Origin: Patescibacteria group bacterium
GTDB lineage: Bacteria; Patescibacteriota; Microgenomatia; Levybacterales; UBA12049
Assembly: GCA_038062115.1 (NCBI GenBank)
Contig: JBBTXS010000004.1
Location: forward strand, 69,009 to 133,008
DNA length: 64,000 nucleotides
Direction: 5' to 3'
Positions 46,832-51,778 of the stretch are shown in pieces. A program made the translations under genes and the position numbers. The notes under the pieces were generated by a model. The model worked only from the letters and a program-made list of their open reading frames with translations, was not told the DNA's origin and did not search any database. Within the stretch, counting starts at the first letter, position 1. Every line of letters begins with the position of its first letter.

Positions 46832-47730
46832 ATAAAAAAATTGATGTATCAATTGTTGTAGTTACCTACAACTCGTTTGACACCATAAAAGAATGCATTG
46901 ATTCTATTGAAAAAACCGTTAAAAAAAACTCATTTGAAATTGTTGTTGTTGACAATAATTCATCGGATGGATCCGCAGAGGGTATTAAGTATTATGTATC
47001 AAGTATTAAGTATGAGAACGTTAGAATTATTCCAAATAAAAAAAACATAGGGTTTTCGAAGGCCAACAATCAGGGCGTCAAAATTTCACAAAAAAGCCGT
47101 TATGTTTTGTTTTTGAATCCCGATGCAATCGTTTATGAAAACACTATTGATGGGATGGTGGATTTTATGAACAAAACTCCCAACGCGGGAGCGGCAACGT
47201 GTTTTATAGAGCTTAAAAATGGCAGACTTGACGATTCCTGCCACAGAGGGTTTCCTACACCTTGGAGGTCTTTATGTTATTTTATGGGTTTATCAAAGTT
47301 TTTTCCAAAAAGTAAATTTTTTGCAGGGTATAACATGACCTATCTTGGTCTTAATAAAACTCACGAGATAGATGCTCTGGGAGGGTCTTTTATGCTGATA
47401 AGGCGCGAAATAGGCAAAAGATTGGGTTGGTGGGACGAAGACTTTTTCTTTTATGGAGAAGATATAGACTTTTGTTTTAGAATAAAAGAAATAGGGTATA
47501 AAATATATTTTGTACCCGAATATAAAGCGCTTCATTACAAAGGGGTTTCAAGCGGAATAAAAAAAGTTTCGGAGTCAATAAGCAAAGCAACAAAAGAAAC
47601 AAAACTTTTTGCAACAAAACATAGATTTAACGCGATGCGAATTTTCTACAAGAAACATTATGAAAAAAAGTATCCAAAAATTGTTACGTGGCTTGTTTAT
47701 GGGGCAATTTGGGCTAAAGAACATTTATGA
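46828..47730 (+). CDS. glycosyltransferase family 2
   Basis: VSIVVVTYNSFDT, VVDNNSSDGS, IGFSKANN, LFLNPDA, FFFYGEDIDFCFR. ATG 46828 (ATGA overlap) is preferred over the track start 46816. Confidence 0.85.
   Translation: MNKKIDVSIVVVTYNSFDTIKECIDSIEKTVKKNSFEIVVVDNNSSDGSAEGIKYYVSSIKYENVRIIPNKKNIGFSKANNQGVKISQKSRYVLFLNPDAIVYENTIDGMVDFMNKTPNAGAATCFIELKNGRLDDSCHRGFPTPWRSLCYFMGLSKFFPKSKFFAGYNMTYLGLNKTHEIDALGGSFMLIRREIGKRLGWWDEDFFFYGEDIDFCFRIKEIGYKIYFVPEYKALHYKGVSSGIKKVSESISKATKETKLFATKHRFNAMRIFYKKHYEKKYPKIVTWLVYGAIWAKEHL
46982..47016. repeat. 7-nt array GTATTAA GTATTAT GTATCAA GTATTAA GTATGAG, in-frame
   Basis: Read directly. Translates as GIKYYVSSIKYE. 37 of 42 nt are identical to 40299-40340 by my count. 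Confidence 0.85.
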
Positions 47731-48869
47731 AAATAGGAATTGATGCTAGGCTTTGGAATGAGTCGGGAGTTGGAAAATACACTAGGAATCTTGTTGAACA
47801 GCTTCAGATAATTGATCGCAAGAATGAGTACATGTTGTTTGTTTTAAGTCAAGATAGAAAAAAGATTCTGAATCAAGTTCAGAATGACAATTTTAGCATA
47901 GTAAATGCAGACATAAGGTGGCATACACTGGAAGAGCAGATGAAGTTTTCATCGATAATTAATAAAGAAGATTTGGATTTAATGCACTTTACTTATCCTT
48001 CGGTTCCTATTTTTTACAATAAGCCTTTTATTGTTACAATTCATGATTTAATTTTGCATCATTTTCCGACAGGAGAAGCCTCAACTTTGGCTTTGCCTTT
48101 ATATTATTTAAAGCACTTCGCATACAAATTAGTGATTTTGCAAGCAGCAAAAAAGGCAAAAAGAATTATTGCAGTATCAAAGGCTACAAAAAAGGAGATT
48201 ATTGACCATCTTAGAGTACCAGAAAAAAAAGTAGTGGTAATATATGAAGGGGTAAGTAACGAGATTACAAATCCAAAATCTCAAATTCCAAATAAATCCC
48301 AAAATCCTAAATACAAAATACTTAATACTAAATACTTTTTGTACGTTGGGAATGCATATCCGCACAAGAACCTAGAGCGAATGCTTATGGCATTCGCAAG
48401 TATTAAGTATAGAGTATTAAGTATAAAGTTGGTTTTTGTTGGCAGAGAGGATTATTTTTACAAAAGATTAAAAGAAAAGGTAAAAAATATGGGTTTAGGA
48501 AAATCAGTGAATTTTTTAGGAGAAGTTAGCGATGATGAATTGATCTGTCTTTATAGAGATGCGAGAGCATTAGTTATTCCATCCTTGATGGAAGGGTTTG
48601 GGCTTCCAGCGTTGGAAGCCATGGCAAATAAATGTTTAGTTTTAGCATCAGATATTCCTTCGTTGAAAGAGGTCTGCGGAAATGCGGCAATTTATTTTGA
48701 TCCTTATGGTATTGATGATATATCAAAAAAAATGATAGAGGTTTACTCTAATGACATAAATCATTATAGTAGCAATATCAACAAAGGTTTTGAAAAAACA
48801 AAAATATTTTCTTGGGAGAAAATGACAAGAGAAACTCTAAAGGTATACGAAAGCTGCGTTGGCGGCTGA
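47727..48869 (+). CDS. glycosyltransferase family 4 carrying at least three in-frame repeat-derived segments
   Basis: MKIGIDARLWNESGVGKYT, LYVGNAYPHKN, PSLMEGFGLPALEAMANKCLVLASDIPSLKE. Confidence 0.85.
   Translation: MKIGIDARLWNESGVGKYTRNLVEQLQIIDRKNEYMLFVLSQDRKKILNQVQNDNFSIVNADIRWHTLEEQMKFSSIINKEDLDLMHFTYPSVPIFYNKPFIVTIHDLILHHFPTGEASTLALPLYYLKHFAYKLVILQAAKKAKRIIAVSKATKKEIIDHLRVPEKKVVVIYEGVSNEITNPKSQIPNKSQNPKYKILNTKYFLYVGNAYPHKNLERMLMAFASIKYRVLSIKLVFVGREDYFYKRLKEKVKNMGLGKSVNFLGEVSDDELICLYRDARALVIPSLMEGFGLPALEAMANKCLVLASDIPSLKEVCGNAAIYFDPYGIDDISKKMIEVYSNDINHYSSNINKGFEKTKIFSWEKMTRETLKVYESCVGG
47875..47902. repeat. half-unit of the GTCATT/ATGACAATT palindromic family (hairpin ATTCTGAA-tcaag-TTCAGAAT + GACAATT end), in-frame
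   Basis: Read directly. Translates as ILNQVQNDNF. Confidence 0.7.
48267..48334. repeat. composite repeat: AAATCY heptamers + AAATAAATCCCAAAATCC + four reverse-orientation GTATTAA-family units (TAAATAC AAAATAC TTAATAC TAAATAC); in-frame
   Basis: Read directly. Translates as NPKSQIPNKSQNPKYKILNTKY in the interdomain linker. Confidence 0.8.
48400..48427. repeat. 7-nt array GTATTAA GTATAGA GTATTAA GTATAAA, in-frame
   Basis: Read directly. Translates as SIKYRVLSIK, at the same alignment position as the GC-rich element E1 in the 38270 paralog. Confidence 0.85.
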
Positions 48870-48874
48870 GCCGT

Positions 48875-48955
48875 ACCGCAGGTGTAATCGTATCTACACC
48901 TCGGATGGTGGCAGCCCTGAGCGAAGTCGAAGGGCATGACTCCTCCGAGGTGGAC
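48875..48955. repeat. GC-rich element, copy E2 (intergenic, chimeric)
   Basis: CCGCAGGTGTA..TACACCTCGG hairpin, then GGTGG, then AGCCCTGAGCGAAGTCGAAGGGC, then GACTCCTCCGAGGTGGAC. Starts 6 nt after the GT4 stop. Confidence 0.7.
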
Positions 48956-49183
48956 ATCAGATTGGGAATGCTATTGTGGTTTGGTAGTCGTACTTGGATT
49001 TAGTGTTTAGCGGACCGTATTTATATGTTTCAAAGACCAAGCCTCTAAGTTTTATCTTCTGGCTTTCTATATACGAAAACAGCTTTTGGTAAATGAGAAT
49101 TAAATATTTATATGGACCATTATAGTTAAATGCTAAGACTTTGGTTTTGGGGTAAGGTTTGAAATAAAAATCATTATGTTGGT

Positions 49184-49254
49184 ATTCACCTTGGAGGAGC
49201 CGAGGTCGTTGCCTCGTCACCTCCGAGGTGTTGCGGAGCGATTCTTCGAAGGTG
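49184..49254. repeat. GC-rich element, copy E3 (reverse orientation, about 71 nt, degenerate)
   Basis: The reverse complement aligns with 63288-63356 over its whole length (shared ...GAGGCARCGACCTCG.CTCCT.C.AGG.GAA). Confidence 0.7.
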
Positions 49255-49274
49255 GAGCTTAGTATAAAGGTTAT

Positions 49275-49383
49275 GGCTGGGTCATAAATACCCATTTGTC
49301 ATTCCGAGCGAGCGTGAGCGAGTCGAGGAATCTCGTTGAAGGAGATTTCTCGGCAAGCTCGAAATGACAATTGTGACCCAGTC
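49275..49383. mobile_element. MITE-like nested palindromic element flanked by an 11-bp direct repeat
   Basis: Outer inverted repeat GGCTGGGTCA / TGACCCAGTC. Inner GTCATTCCGAG...CTCGAAATGAC (49298-49368). ATAAAGGTTAT occurs at 49264-49274 and again at 49384-49394. Confidence 0.5.
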
Positions 49384-49598
49384 ATAAAGGTTATCTCAAG
49401 AGGCGTATTTTGGGATTATAGGCGTTGTTGAGATAAAAAGTTATCTCAGAGGGTTTACATTTTAGCTTTAATCTTTTTGCTTCTTGCCAAAGAGTTTTTA
49501 TATACTCAGTAATCTTTGCATATTCCCCGTGTCCTACTTTCATACAAAATAGATTGAATGGGCCAAAGTTTTTGGTTTGAAATATGTTCTTTATGCTC

Positions 49599-49636
49599 GT
49601 CATTCTGGCAAGCGAAGAATGAGCGCGTCCAGAATC
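49599..49636. repeat. half-unit of the GTCATT palindromic family (GTCATTCTGG..CCAGAATC)
   Basis: Read directly. Overlaps the putative start of the GyrI-like pseudogene. Confidence 0.55.
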
Positions 49637-49660
49637 TATATCGTTTTGGAAGAAAAATGA

Positions 49661-49885
49661 CTTAATATTTTTCAGGAACCTATAGTCGATAGAATTCAAA
49701 GAGATAACGCAATTTTTTCTATCGTATCTGTAGGTAGTCTAGATATTATTGATCCTAAAAAAGACGAAAACGGTAGATATTTCTGTGGTTACAATCAAGA
49801 AGAGTATCGTGGGCTTTTGAATAAATTAAAAGCGGATTTGCTTTTGACCATGTTTCTTCGCGGCGGCGCACCGATTGTGAAGTAG
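49661..49885 (+). pseudogene. orphan open frame without a start codon (3' remnant of an unidentified gene)
   Basis: 74 sense codons ending ...DENGRYFCGYNQEEYRGLLNKLKADLLLTMFLRGGAPIVK then TAG. There is no ATG/GTG/TTG until close to the end. Confidence 0.2.
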
Positions 49886-49889
49886 CTGT

Positions 49890-50300
49890 CTACATTTCCA
49901 ATATTGTAGTTTTGTCTTTCATGACTAAAGTTAGTAGCTCTAAACATTGCAGCCTTCCTAGTAATGCTGGAATATCATTCCTATTTAAAAATCCCACAGG
50001 AATTCTATTTTCAAAGCTTCCTATTTTCGTGCGGACACCTTTCTTGTATAGATAAATTGCCTCTTTCCCACCGACGCCATAAGTATTTTCTAAAAAACAT
50101 TCTTTTTCTAATTCGATTCCCAAAAGTTCAGCATACCTTTTTGGGAAAAGCGAATAGTCTGCTCCGGTATCAACAACCATTTCAACTGGAATCCATTCGT
50201 CAATCTGATCAGAAGTTATAAGAATTTGTAGATATGGACGGTAAATTTTACCCAAAATACCCTTCCCTCGAAAGCTAAAACGAGAAGATATTATTTTCAT
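49890..50300 (-). CDS. retropepsin-like (clan AA) aspartic protease
   Basis: VEMVVDTGADYSLFP (D-T-G active site) and a C-terminal ALLGRL motif. Single-domain size of 136 aa. Confidence 0.7.
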   Translation of the reverse strand: MKIISSRFSFRGKGILGKIYRPYLQILITSDQIDEWIPVEMVVDTGADYSLFPKRYAELLGIELEKECFLENTYGVGGKEAIYLYKKGVRTKIGSFENRIPVGFLNRNDIPALLGRLQCLELLTLVMKDKTTILEM

Positions 50301-50536
50301 TTAAAGATAAGAATGTAAGAAGTTCCAGGATGTGGGACAAATACTAGAACTGGCGACTTGCCATATTTTTCTTTTAATCTCTTGAATCTTTCAAGTGCCC
50401 TTTTGCCACGTGCTAAAGGAACAACTTCCTTATCTACTACAAATACCTGTTTTCCACCATACTTTTTAACCAGAGGATGTAAACCAGAAAGCAGTGCGTT
50501 TAATGTTTTTCCTGTTTTATCCTCTATTTTTTTCAT
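50297..50536 (-). CDS. small DUF5678-like protein, translationally coupled to the aspartic protease
   Basis: MKKIEDKTG...YGGKQVFVVDKEVVPLARGKRALERFKRLKEKYGKSPVLVFVP. ATGA overlap with the protease gene. The longer track ORF (to 50704) overlaps the divergent GT4 start region and was trimmed to Met57. Confidence 0.5.
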   Translation of the reverse strand: MKKIEDKTGKTLNALLSGLHPLVKKYGGKQVFVVDKEVVPLARGKRALERFKRLKEKYGKSPVLVFVPHPGTSYILIFK

Positions 50537-50632
50537 AACAACTTTATTGTAAACAAAATATTCAAAGATTGCAAGCGGTTGTGGGTTCGACGGGCTGCTT
50601 CTTATCATGATAAAATAGGCGGAGTATTTACA

Positions 50633-51778
50633 ATGAAAATTGCATTGGTGTATGATCGGGTAAATAAGTGGGGAGGGGCAGAGAGAGTGCTTTTGGCATT
50701 GCATGAATTATTTCCAGATGCACCTATTTACACTTCGGTTTACAATCCAATAACTGCATCTTGGGCTAAAACTTTCGATGTTAGAAGTTCATTCTTGCAG
50801 AAATTTCCTTTGGCATCTATAGCTCATGAGTTATATGCGGTCTTGATGCCCATTGCCTTTGAAAGTTTTTCTTTTGACCAATATGATCTTGTAATTTCAG
50901 TTACGAGTGAGGCTGCAAAAGGGATAATAACCAAACCAAAAACAAAGCATATTTGCTATTGTCTAACTCCAACCCGTTATCTTTGGAGTGCTTACGATGA
51001 TTACTTTAGAAATCCCTTATTGCGATTTCTATCAAAACCAGTAGTTTCGTATCTTAGGACTTGGGATAAAATTGCAGCGCAAAGGCCAGATGCGTACGTT
51101 GCAATTTCTCAAGAGGTCAAAAGAAGAATTAAAAAATATTATGGGAGAGAGTCAGTGGTTGTATACCCGCCAGTAGACATCAGTAGTATGTATCATGTAT
51201 CAAGTATTAAGTATAAAAAAAATGCAAATGAAATACATAATACAAACTACATACTACATAATACTGTCGATTACTTCCTCATCGTCTCTCGGCTTGTTCC
51301 ATACAAACGAATTGATATTGCGATTAGAGCATTTAATAAGCTTAGACTTCCATTAAAAATTATTGGCGTAGGGTCACAAGAAAAGTATCTTAAAAGCATC
51401 AGTAGCCCAACTATAGAATTCCTTGGCAACTTGACTGAAGATGAGTTAGTAAGCTATTATAAGGGATGTCGTGCTTTAATTTTTGTAGGTGTTGAAGATT
51501 TTGGTCTTACTGTTTTGGAGGCACAGAGTTTTGGAAAACCCGTGATTGCGTTTCGCGGAGGCGGTACACTGGAGACTATAAAAGAAGGAAAAACTGGTGA
51601 GTTTTTTAGTCAACAAAATCCAAAATCACTTACAGATGTGCTTAAAAGATTCGATGAAAGAAAATATAAAAGTACTGACTGCATAGAGAATGCTAAAAAG
51701 TTTTCGTTTGAAAGATTTAAAGAAAAGCTTATGGATGTCGTTGCGAGGAGTTTAGCGACGAAGCAATCTCAAATTTGA
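50633..51778 (+). CDS. glycosyltransferase family 4
   Basis: MKIALVYDRVNKWGGAERVL, FLIVSRLVPYKR, VGVEDFGLTVLEAQSFGKPVIA. Start trimmed from 50579 to ATG 50633. The last 14 codons and the stop lie inside a palindromic repeat. Confidence 0.85.
   Translation: MKIALVYDRVNKWGGAERVLLALHELFPDAPIYTSVYNPITASWAKTFDVRSSFLQKFPLASIAHELYAVLMPIAFESFSFDQYDLVISVTSEAAKGIITKPKTKHICYCLTPTRYLWSAYDDYFRNPLLRFLSKPVVSYLRTWDKIAAQRPDAYVAISQEVKRRIKKYYGRESVVVYPPVDISSMYHVSSIKYKKNANEIHNTNYILHNTVDYFLIVSRLVPYKRIDIAIRAFNKLRLPLKIIGVGSQEKYLKSISSPTIEFLGNLTEDELVSYYKGCRALIFVGVEDFGLTVLEAQSFGKPVIAFRGGGTLETIKEGKTGEFFSQQNPKSLTDVLKRFDERKYKSTDCIENAKKFSFERFKEKLMDVVARSLATKQSQI
51183..51265. repeat. composite repeat: five GTATYAA-family units, A-rich spacer, four TACAWAM units; in-frame
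   Basis: Read directly. Translates as SSMYHVSSIKYKKNANEIHNTNYILHNT. Same architecture and orientation as 20416..20483. Confidence 0.85.

Follow-up and report, generated by a model that had tools for sequence, protein, structure and literature searches.

Stand-alone retropepsin-like proteases are widespread in prokaryotes and their function is barely known; a conserved partner protein gives a concrete handle on it. The solved example, APRc of Rickettsia conorii, is anchored in the membrane and acts on surface proteins. Such enzymes have been described as prokaryotic single-domain clan AA peptidases (pSNCAPs; COG3577, COG5550, TIGR02281 and TIGR03698), of which little is known with regard to function (PMC2642776), and the literature searched describes no partner protein for these families. 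In the Sulfolobales, small retropepsin-domain proteins (Saci_1895) associate with type III-D CRISPR loci (PMC3973734), and the PDC systems, among them the phage-defence candidate PDC-M08, were defined in RefSeq genomes by their location within loci of BREX, DISARM and type I RM (Payne et al., bioRxiv 10.1101/2024.01.29.577857).

The gene pair described here is located in a stretch of 64,000 nucleotides from a Patescibacteria group bacterium that was analysed as a whole and is termed the window. It consists of a small DUF5678-type gene followed by a gene for a retropepsin-like protease, a pairing of which no description was found in the literature. The protease is like pSNCAPs in that it is a single retropepsin domain of ~120–140 aa with the D-T/S-G-A, flap and LLG-R motifs, and its best structural match is APRc, but, unlike APRc, it has no membrane segment. 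PDC-M08 is likewise composed of two genes, of which the second encodes a retropepsin-like protein; its A component, however, is unmatched in the pair presented here, and the scan of immediate neighbours revealed no embedding in known defence systems among the 25 most frequent families. Like Saci_1895, the protease is small and stand-alone, consists of a prokaryotic retropepsin domain and may be linked to defence, whereas no CRISPR genes were seen beside the cassette loci examined, that is, among the 25 most frequent immediate-neighbour families of 75 loci. Ddi1 and retroviral Gag-Pro/p6* also combine a retropepsin with a small accessory polypeptide, N-terminal or upstream, but this is an analogy only, and the accessory part of the cassette is a separate gene product and not part of a frameshift fusion.

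In its layout the pair is like type II toxin-antitoxin systems, such as VapBC (with a PIN toxin) or RelBE/YafQ-DinJ: two short, adjacent, co-oriented and overlapping genes, the smaller one first, are inherited together as a unit, are present or absent in variable contexts, occur in divergent copies and frequently decay, and the window copy sits at a junction that holds PIN and YafQ/ParE modules in relatives. Unlike in those systems, both proteins fall outside the known toxin and antitoxin families, the putative toxin would be an aspartic protease and not a nuclease or kinase, and the cassette has no plasmid match and one weak viral-contig match.

The two genes and their products

The preliminary description had reported ORFs of 79 and 136 aa that overlap by ATGA; both are present as described (Table 1), on the minus strand, which had been left unsaid. 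Their assignment to a DUF5678-type protein and a stand-alone retropepsin-like protease was borne out by Pfam, fold and homologues, with the small protein just below the Pfam threshold (PF18929; E 1.1e-4, 22.4 bits against a gathering score of 23.2).

Table 1. Features of the gene pair and of its surroundings; positions are those of the window.
Feature	Position	Strand	Remarks
Inserted segment, ~1.75 kb	48870..50632		Flanked by two glycosyltransferase genes that lie side by side in relatives
Promoter-like TTGCAA-17-TACAAT	50546..50574	minus	Consensus scan; weak evidence, perhaps chance in AT-rich DNA
Imperfect AT-rich palindrome over the -10 box and the start codon	50525-50560		17-nt inverted repeat, 76% complementary; weak evidence, as AT-rich DNA may yield such repeats by chance
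Small ORF	50536..50297	minus	ATG at 50536, stop 50299-50297; 79 aa
C-terminal tail of the small protein, residues 66-79 (FVPHPGTSYILIFK)	50300..50341	minus	Conservation and AF2 model
ATGA stop/start overlap of the small gene and the protease gene	50297..50300	minus	Sequence
Protease ORF	49890..50300	minus	ATG at 50300, stop 49892-49890; 136 aa, single domain
Catalytic motif D44-T45-G46-A47	50160..50171	minus	Sequence
L113-L114-G115-R116, retropepsin hydrophobic-hydrophobic-Gly plus Arg motif	49953..49964	minus	Sequence

The protease scores above the gathering score of Pfam Asp_protease_2 (PF13650; 31.5 against 24.3 bits), and PF13650 or PF13975 is found in most of its 183 homologues; NCBI names the window protein (MEK7533890.1) a 'retropepsin-like aspartic protease'. 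The top Foldseek matches of its AF2 model (pLDDT 95) are Rickettsia APRc (5c9f; 1.3e-6) and the SIV, HIV and FIV proteases (probability 1.00 for all of these), and a profile comparison with PDB gave FIV protease (3.7e-4) and the retropepsin domain of Ddi1 (4e-3). A retropepsin-like (clan AA) fold with all catalytic motifs can thus be predicted with confidence. The DTGA motif, the glycine-rich flap (GxGG; G75-V-G-G78) and the LLGR motif, which aligns with LLGR of FIV protease, are each 96–100% conserved in 79 sequences. Within these 79 distinct proteases D44, G46 and A47 are invariant (100%), the catalytic residues overall reach 99–100%, and D[TS]GA is retained in 79 of 82 protease ORFs, the other three being broken pseudogenes. 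The scores against TIGR02281 (14.9 bits, cut-off 57.95) and TIGR03698 (14.4 bits, cut-off 57.35) are far under the cut-off, so that the protease belongs to a separate clade. Neither protein of the pair contains a signal peptide or a membrane segment, and no hydrophobic segment is present in the protease (maximum 19-residue Kyte-Doolittle mean 1.25), which is predicted to be cytoplasmic.

The small protein was related to DUF5678 mainly through its homologues, since 20 of 25 diverse relatives match this family (E up to 0.01; best E 2.7e-11), and the family-level tie, as a branch of DUF5678, is sound. It is basic (pI 10.3, net charge +12), as are consistently its relatives (median pI 9.9), and this positive charge, the sole pointer to nucleic-acid binding, is a hint. 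No RHH, HTH, AbrB or Phd-type DNA-binding domain is recognisable in it, and the antitoxin domain that characterises type II toxin-antitoxin systems was not found: no antitoxin family of Pfam, NCBIfam or PADLOC was matched. Ubiquitin-like or Gag similarity was not detected, and a structural search of the PDB returned no solved relative. The mean column identity among 36 close homologues is 73%. The AF2 model is a confident one (pLDDT 87) and comprises helix, helix, strand, strand, helix and strand, followed by a tail, and after residue 66 the monomer model has neither helix nor strand. The tail follows the pattern [FY]-[VI]-P, about five residues, Y-I-L, and over 79 distinct pairs its identities reach 92% at P68, 92% at I75 and 97% at L76; from conservation and the model, it is proposed to be the protease-binding segment. 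Relatives of the small protein are labelled 'DUF5678 domain-containing protein' in the source databases. A PDB profile match to the N-terminal repeats of PeiP (pseudomurein endoisopeptidase; summed E 4e-6) was rejected as motif resemblance only, made up of several stretches with E above 1 each. A 135-aa long form of the small ORF (ATG 50704) was also set aside as an artefact, since all homologues are ~79 aa long and their alignment starts at M1; the extra residues are an antisense reading of the conserved 5′ end of the divergent glycosyltransferase gene.

The close junction of the two genes is not peculiar to the window. The stop codon of the small gene lies −4 to +23 nt from the predicted protease start in 74 of 75 loci (56 nt in the outlier) and an overlap of 1, 4, 7, 10, 13 or 16 nt occurs in 59 of 75, these exact distances being approximate, as the protease starts are predictions. 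No obvious Shine-Dalgarno sequence was seen, and the earlier term 'translationally coupled' agrees with the ATGA overlap together with this missing signal. Since stop and start codons overlap, a single short transcript very probably gives rise to both proteins, in a fixed proportion. The promoter-like site and the ATG of the small gene are 9 nt apart, which would leave a very short leader or none, and an Rfam scan of the region (E up to 1) gave no known RNA element. The protease lies in the −1 frame relative to the small ORF; a programmed −1 frameshift fusion in the style of gag-pro was considered and rejected for the window, because a TAA directly precedes the protease ATG in its own frame and makes such a fusion impossible there. 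The window's gene pair also contains no in-frame slippery heptamer.

Conservation and distribution of the pair

The genome scan was queried with the protease alignment alone and found at least 108 loci among 185,579 species genomes, a lower bound because the scan was pattern-limited; the small protein is represented by 44 cluster representatives among 1.84 billion proteins. In 75 of the 80 loci found by the protease alone, the small gene is located directly upstream on the same strand, and the remaining five are contig-edge or truncated copies; every testable locus (75 of 75) has the two genes side by side. Among the loci found, no intact protease lacked its small partner. A survey of co-occurrence had been proposed in the preliminary description, and both the pairing and the small ORF turned out to be conserved; judged on genome sequences, this pairing is far beyond chance. 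Between loci, the identity of one protein correlates with that of the other (Pearson 0.72, 3081 pairwise comparisons), with the small partner evolving faster (mean identity 35% vs 44% for the protease), and both genes are under strong purifying selection over ~80 lineages. Decayed copies are also found (P0159, P0192, P0172 and L034), in which the small protein is intact and the protease gene next to it is deleted or frameshifted: the protease is lost first.

Two divergent copies occur in each of five MAGs; the window holds no second copy. Distant pairs were found in Anaerolineae, at other loci and in one probable archaeon, the phylum spread beyond Patescibacteria and Chloroflexi being tentative, since labels such as 'uncultured Gammaproteobacteria' are unreliable. 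Two of the loci, L005 (protein named Roizmanbacteria by NCBI) and L013, belong to the same record, CAYSQE010000001.1. The pair of L012 scores identically to that of L010 (protein named Daviesbacteria).

Insertion site and genomic neighbourhoods

That the module has nothing to do with the glycan genes around it is upheld by comparison with related genomes, where the ~1.75-kb segment is missing. Neither gene of the pair is present in any of the 80 orthologous glycan loci (80/80; glycosyltransferases 57–74% identical), and most of them have the orthologues of 47727-48869 and 50633-51778 directly side by side or overlapping. Besides the cassette, the insert contains remnants of a GyrI-like gene; both are opposite in strand to the glycan cluster, and a search for target-site duplications or terminal repeats around it gave nothing convincing. 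At the same junction between the glycosyltransferase genes, relatives carry either an IS200-like transposase or a gene for a PIN or a YafQ/ParE toxin, each of these toxin genes being preceded by a small ORF.

Elsewhere the cassette is found in unrelated surroundings: one copy lies in a ribosomal-protein operon, where it separates secY from adk and runs on the opposite strand, one after dnaK-dnaJ, and one adjoins GIY-YIG and LAGLIDADG genes. The neighbour scan, which covered one gene on each side of 75 loci, yielded 136 genes that fall into 130 Pfam families; most of these are housekeeping families, and no third gene is conserved beside the pair. The 25 most frequent of the 130 families were viewed and include no defence-specific family (restriction-modification, BREX, Cas), so that the defence-island location to which the preliminary description had pointed does not hold for these neighbours. 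About 76% of upstream neighbours share the strand of the cassette, hence many copies may be transcribed by read-through from host operons. In Anaerolineae a conserved order (PGM/PMM, the pair, TatD, polyprenyl synthase and GT2) of co-directional, overlapping genes is maintained, which looks like a stably inherited cellular function and is a counter-example to the otherwise accessory and mobile character of the cassette; this conserved housekeeping operon leaves a purely mobile lifestyle unsupported. The same is true for a link to mobile replicons: plasmids, the phage genome collection and PHROGs gave no match to the cassette, and among 2.9 million viral contigs there was one match only, weak and partial.

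Candidate roles of the cassette

The resemblance to toxin-antitoxin or defence modules that was noted earlier receives circumstantial support from the junction shared with PIN and YafQ/ParE modules, the varied contexts, the divergent copies and the decay, while an antitoxin or DNA-binding domain is missing. We tentatively favor, at somewhat less than even weight, the reading that the pair is a toxin-antitoxin-like cassette, in which the protease would be the effector and the DUF5678 protein its cognate inhibitor. Such a cassette of two genes would be autonomous and move horizontally, with the build of a type II toxin-antitoxin or addiction module. In this concept the protease would be soluble, cytoplasmic and active as a homodimer, and the tail of the small protein would bind it, either in the substrate cleft or at the strand-exchange dimer interface, so that the bound protease is kept inactive or narrowly targeted. 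Upon cassette loss, stress or infection the small protein might be degraded or no longer resupplied, and the freed protease would then cleave cellular proteins and cause growth arrest; the pay-off may be either selfish addiction or phage defence. Dependence of the protease on its partner would explain why an intact protease never occurs solo, why the two genes are inherited jointly and why decay begins with the protease. A hint toward defence comes from the match of the protease to component B of the candidate PDC-M08 (E 3.8e-8) and from the CRISPR association of small retropepsin-domain proteins in Sulfolobales. Against this reading stand the lack of a defence-specific family among the neighbours viewed, of any plasmid match and of a DNA-binding domain in the small protein, as well as the stable operon of Anaerolineae, the same-strand position of about 76% of upstream neighbours and the yield of one weak, partial match from the viral contigs. 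To our knowledge, no aspartic protease acts as the toxin of a characterised toxin-antitoxin system.

If the protease is a toxin, toxin-antitoxin and defence biology would gain a new catalytic class, and DUF5678 a function. That the pair stands for such a new toxin-antitoxin or abortive-infection class, with a cytoplasmic aspartic protease toxin, a new kind of tail-bearing small inhibitor and horizontal spread over Patescibacteria, Chloroflexi, other bacterial phyla and archaea, we consider rather unlikely; a further, speculative idea is that cassettes of a small protein and a retropepsin were the prokaryotic stock of retroelement proteases and Ddi1. If true, even tiny Patescibacteria genomes would still carry and exchange addiction-type cassettes, also within ribosomal-protein and glycan operons, and a naturally occurring protein that inhibits a retropepsin would be of interest to structural biologists. 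Both proteins are small and should be soluble and easy to express, which makes interaction, inhibition and toxicity readily testable.

A serious possibility, if a somewhat doubtful one, is that the protease is an ordinary cellular enzyme with a dedicated cofactor. The DUF5678 protein would then serve as adaptor, activator or assembly chaperone, on which the enzyme would depend to dimerise or to recognise its substrates in a non-selfish task such as quality control or the processing of particular proteins. Any obligate complex fits the strict co-occurrence and co-evolution, and such a role is in line with the mostly housekeeping neighbours, with membership of the Anaerolineae operon beside TatD, sugar-phosphate and polyprenyl genes, with the single weak and partial viral-contig match and no match to plasmids or phage genomes, and with the 63–85% identity of the small protein inside Microgenomates. 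It is less easily reconciled with the patchy distribution (44 representatives among 1.84 billion proteins; at least 108 loci in 185,579 genomes), with the window copy being an insertion that is missing in 80 orthologous loci and sits at a toxin-antitoxin-bearing junction, with unrelated contexts such as the opposite-strand insertion in the ribosomal-protein operon, with several divergent copies in tiny genomes, and with recurrent pseudogenisation.

It is improbable that the two genes form a precursor-processing pair, in which the small protein would be the substrate and its tail would be cut, or a peptide released, to mature or activate it. The tail is conserved, contains a proline and is unstructured beside a folded core, the gene order is that of an upstream polypeptide followed by a retropepsin, as in retroviruses, and the overlap implies stoichiometric co-expression. 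However, an export signal is lacking, as are genes for modification or transport in the vicinity, the conserved [FY]-[VI]-P is not the classic aromatic-Pro scissile motif, and a substrate confined to the neighbouring gene leaves mobility and protease-first decay unexplained.

Very unlikely, in turn, is membership of the cassette in the PADLOC candidate PDC-M08, although five models of PDC-M08B recognise the protease (best E 3.8e-8) and PDC-M08 is also a two-gene A>>B cassette (FAM_03167>>FAM_00414). The B match spans only the generic retropepsin core (residues 40–115), neither the window small protein nor its 25 relatives matched PDC-M08A (E up to 1), and PDC systems are defined by their embedding in defence loci, of which none is among the 25 commonest neighbour families.

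A gag-pro-like remnant of a retroelement or virus with no cellular role, to which the retropepsin fold and the −1 frame of the protease relative to a small ORF ahead of it might point, can practically be dismissed, given that no reverse transcriptase, integrase or LTR-like repeats lie near the loci, the pair is essentially missing from viral contigs and PHROGs, the stop before the protease ATG bars a fusion in the window, and both genes are under strong purifying selection.

Conservation of the overlapping gene pair

The two genes, encoding a DUF5678-type small protein and a retropepsin-like protease, are real overlapping ORFs at 49890-50536 of the window, as the preliminary description had proposed, and lie on the minus strand. 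The window belongs to a MAG of Patescibacteria obtained from Hainich groundwater, and NCBI names the products 'hypothetical protein AAB600_01000' and 'retropepsin-like aspartic protease', respectively. A 135-aa version of the small ORF (ATG 50704) was rejected as an artefact, because every homologue is ~79 aa long, with the alignment beginning at the first methionine, and the additional N-terminal residues come from reading the divergent glycosyltransferase gene antisense across its conserved 5′ end; the peptide so produced recurs, likewise antisense, in another locus (L113).

When one genome per species (185,579 species) was searched with the protease alone as query, 108 protease loci were obtained, of which the best 80 (37-73% identity) were kept and all their ORFs scanned with purpose-built profiles. 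In 75 of these best 80 loci the small gene immediately precedes the protease in the same orientation; in the other five the protease stands at a contig edge (three) or is truncated or fragmented (two). The small-gene stop is located -4 to +23 nt from the protease start in 74 of the 75 loci (56 nt in the one outlier), and overlaps of 1, 4, 7, 10, 13 or 16 nt occur in 59, all distances being approximate since protease starts are predicted. Starting from distant small proteins, a D-T/S-G-A protease was found that likewise overlaps the small-gene stop, in Anaerolineae and other Chloroflexi, in one unassigned metagenome lineage and in a likely archaeon, where the gene next to the pair ends in a PGF-CTERM-like tail. 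The pairing is thus strongly conserved, and neither a lack of co-occurrence nor a non-conserved small ORF can be held against the two-gene module, since those loci and the distant lineages agree. The two proteins also co-evolve, their pairwise identities being correlated (Pearson 0.72, 3081 comparisons), with faster divergence in the small protein (mean identity 35% vs. 44%).

Decay affects the protease first. In the homologous proteins P0159 and P0192 an intact small protein is fused to the protease C-terminus (last ~30-40 residues), through independent in-frame deletions in two lineages, while P0172 is a frameshifted copy. One of two further broken proteases (L034) lies next to an intact small gene, and an intact protease devoid of its small partner was not seen among the loci examined.

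Coordinates of the features in the window and in other loci
Feature	Sequence	Position	Strand	Remark
Small-protein ORF, 79 aa	window	ATG 50536, stop 50299-50297	minus	ORF reading
Protease ORF, 136 aa	window	ATG 50300, stop 49892-49890	minus	ORF reading
ATGA common to both ORFs	window	50297-50300	minus	stop/start overlap; sequence
Putative sigma-70-like site TTGCAA-17-TACAAT	window	50574-50546	minus	consensus match only; ends 9 nt before small-gene ATG
Inserted segment	window	~48870-50632		carries pair and remnants of GyrI-like gene
ORFs resembling halves of one GyrI-like gene	window	48957-49295 and 49391-49699	minus	
Broken protease	L034	3007-3408		frameshifted or fragmented
Broken protease	L085	339-584		frameshifted or fragmented
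Junction cargo	L107	3751-4409		
Junction cargo	L178	4392-4945	minus	
Junction cargo	L113, L114	4318-4953	minus	
Junction cargo	L118	4180-4908	minus	
Junction cargo	L132	4565-4942	minus	
Coiled-coil ORF, ~110 aa	L114	5053-5385	minus	
Coiled-coil ORF, ~110 aa	L140	4599-4934	minus	
Coiled-coil ORF, ~110 aa	L146	2810-3145	minus	
Coiled-coil ORF, ~110 aa	L149	4388-4717	minus	
Coiled-coil ORF, ~110 aa	L150	4556-4924	minus	
Coiled-coil ORF, ~110 aa	L158	4618-4962	minus	
Chloroflexi arrangement with pair	L092	4001-4701		
Chloroflexi arrangement with pair	L097-L099			also L032, L040, L065, L076

Insertion into the glycan cluster and sites in other genomes

The window copy of the pair lies within a cluster of glycan genes, interrupting it, and has the opposite orientation. 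Both genes are absent from all of 80 metagenome loci in which the downstream GT4 glycosyltransferase gene has an orthologue (57-74% identity), and since orthologues of the flanking genes (47727-48869 and 50633-51778) abut or overlap in most of these loci, the segment between them is an insertion. The junction is a variable hot spot, because other accessory cargo is present there in ~16 relatives: by Pfam, a PIN toxin and a YafQ/ParE toxin, each with an upstream small ORF, as well as an IS200-like Y1 transposase, an endonuclease/exonuclease/phosphatase (Exo_endo_phos) protein and a glyoxalase. The pair therefore occupies a position equivalent to that of classic type II toxin-antitoxin modules.

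Several minor features accompany this junction. A recurrent coiled-coil ORF, always antisense to the cluster, is found there in six relatives, with weak DUF7310 and FlaC-like matches. Within the inserted segment, a nested palindromic MITE/REP-like element (49264-49394) appears to split the halves of the GyrI-like gene, the 3′ half of which reaches 23.7 bits against Pfam GyrI-like (gathering score 26); this split gene is the region earlier described as decayed. An imperfect GC-rich palindrome (48886-48963; 20-nt arms, 80% complementary) lies directly 3′ of the upstream GT stop, and the 11-mer CCTCCGAGGTG, noted with it, recurs at 49220-49230. The upstream GT4 gene (plus strand) also matches Pfam 'GT4-conflict' (30.3 bits, threshold 26), which probably reflects family overlap and no link to conflict systems, since its Glycos_transf_1 match is far stronger (115.6 bits).

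The pair is mobile: in a Daviesbacteria MAG (L010 4771-6100; also L011, L012) it lies between secY and adk of the ribosomal-protein operon, oriented against the operon; in Roizmanbacteria it follows dnaK-dnaJ, and elsewhere it stands beside GIY-YIG and LAGLIDADG genes. Five MAGs each carry two divergent copies. The 136 immediate neighbours in the 75 loci represent 130 Pfam families (most commonly class II tRNA synthetase, 6; TatD, 4; PGM/PMM, 3; phage-type integrase, 3), with no conserved third gene. None of the 25 most frequent of these families is defence-specific, so that the suggested defence-island location was not borne out. No match to the pair was found in plasmids (72,556), phage genomes (50,697) or PHROGs, and 2.9 million viral contigs gave one weak, partial match. 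In Anaerolineae and other Chloroflexi the conserved order is PGM/PMM, DUF5678, protease, TatD, polyprenyl synthase and GT2, with co-directional, overlapping genes, and in Anaerolineae this embedding suggests a cellular role with stable inheritance.

Some remarks concern individual records. The secY-adk site additionally holds a 204-aa ORF that carries no annotation, and in L092 a fused nucleotidyltransferase-HEPN gene lies two genes upstream. Many binchicken MAG records titled 'uncultured Gammaproteobacteria' (among L012-L091) are clearly Patescibacteria, which makes the title names unreliable; L013 and L005 are one record (protein named Roizmanbacteria), and the pair scores of L012 are those of L010 (protein named Daviesbacteria).

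Properties of the two proteins

The protease belongs to clan AA and Pfam Asp_protease_2 (31.5 bits, threshold 24.3); its scores for the curated bacterial/archaeal subfamilies TIGR02281 and TIGR03698, of which it is not a member, lie far under the cut-offs. Its confident AF2 model (pLDDT 95) is structurally closest to the Rickettsia retropepsin-like protease APRc and to SIV, HIV and FIV proteases, and at sequence level the family profile also picks up FIV protease (E 3.7e-4) and the retropepsin domain of Ddi1 (E 4e-3), with the stretches DTGAD, GVGG and LLGR aligned. The catalytic apparatus is intact: over 79 distinct members D44, G46, A47, G75, G115 and R116 are invariant and D48, G77, G78 and L113 are 99% conserved. 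By homology, an active, homodimeric aspartic protease would be expected, and we infer a soluble, cytoplasmic enzyme; no signal peptide, membrane anchor or suitable hydrophobic segment was found in it.

Judged by profile matches, the small protein is a branch of DUF5678, since 20 of 25 diverse relatives match this family (E up to 0.01; best 2.7e-11) and public sources name its relatives 'DUF5678 domain-containing protein'; the window protein itself scores 22.4 bits, just below the threshold of 23.2. The branch is narrow, with just 44 relatives found when 1.84 billion cluster representatives were searched by profile, and strongly basic throughout (median pI 9.9, median net charge +8). In the confident AF2 model (pLDDT 87) a pair of helices precedes a hairpin, then come a long helix and a third strand, and the chain ends in a 13-residue tail that has no secondary structure yet contains several of the best-conserved positions (P68 92%, I75 92%, L76 97%); G28 and P62 are invariant. 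Neither a solved structure resembling the model nor a match to antitoxin, DNA-binding or defence families was found. Residues 38-71 (helix, G-x-x-P, strand) are weakly resembled by each N-terminal repeat of the pseudomurein endoisopeptidase PeiP (PDB 8z4f), with a summed profile E of 4e-6, yet each single stretch lies above E 1.

A possible toxin-antitoxin-like function

The likeness to toxin-antitoxin modules holds for the architecture and behaviour of the cassette, and we tentatively favour it as an explanation. Both proteins would be produced together, and the small basic protein would bind the protease and keep it inactive or restricted, its conserved unstructured tail probably occupying the substrate cleft or contacting the dimer interface; if the small protein were lost, the released protease might damage the cell. 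Evidence against this comes from the Anaerolineae operon, from the lack of matches in plasmids, phage genomes and PHROGs, with one weak, partial viral-contig match, and from the unsupported defence-island location. The main rival, to which we give slightly less weight, is a protease of the usual cellular kind that depends on the small protein as an adaptor, activator or chaperone. It would account just as well for the linkage and for the operon in Anaerolineae, but not for the polymorphic insertion, the variety of contexts, the occurrence of several copies or the protease-first decay.

Membership of PADLOC PDC-M08, a two-gene 'guilt-by-embedding' phage-defence candidate, is a lesser reading: the protease matches its B component, and membership is not established because the A component matches neither the small protein nor its 25 relatives. 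A precursor-processing pair and a retroelement remnant are likewise lesser readings.

A 2009 catalogue of the single-domain clan AA peptidases of prokaryotes remarked that little was known about them (PMC2642776). A literature search, with most subscription journals outside its scope, found no mention of DUF5678 in prokaryotes or of its pairing with a retropepsin-like protease. The cassette is rated as toxin-antitoxin-like, built of families that no characterised system is known to use, and it offers a clean, cheaply testable lead, based entirely on comparative genomics, into two uncharacterised protein families. In Sulfolobales, retropepsin-domain proteins adjoin type III-D CRISPR loci (PMC3973734), which also hints at a defence link for the retropepsin fold.
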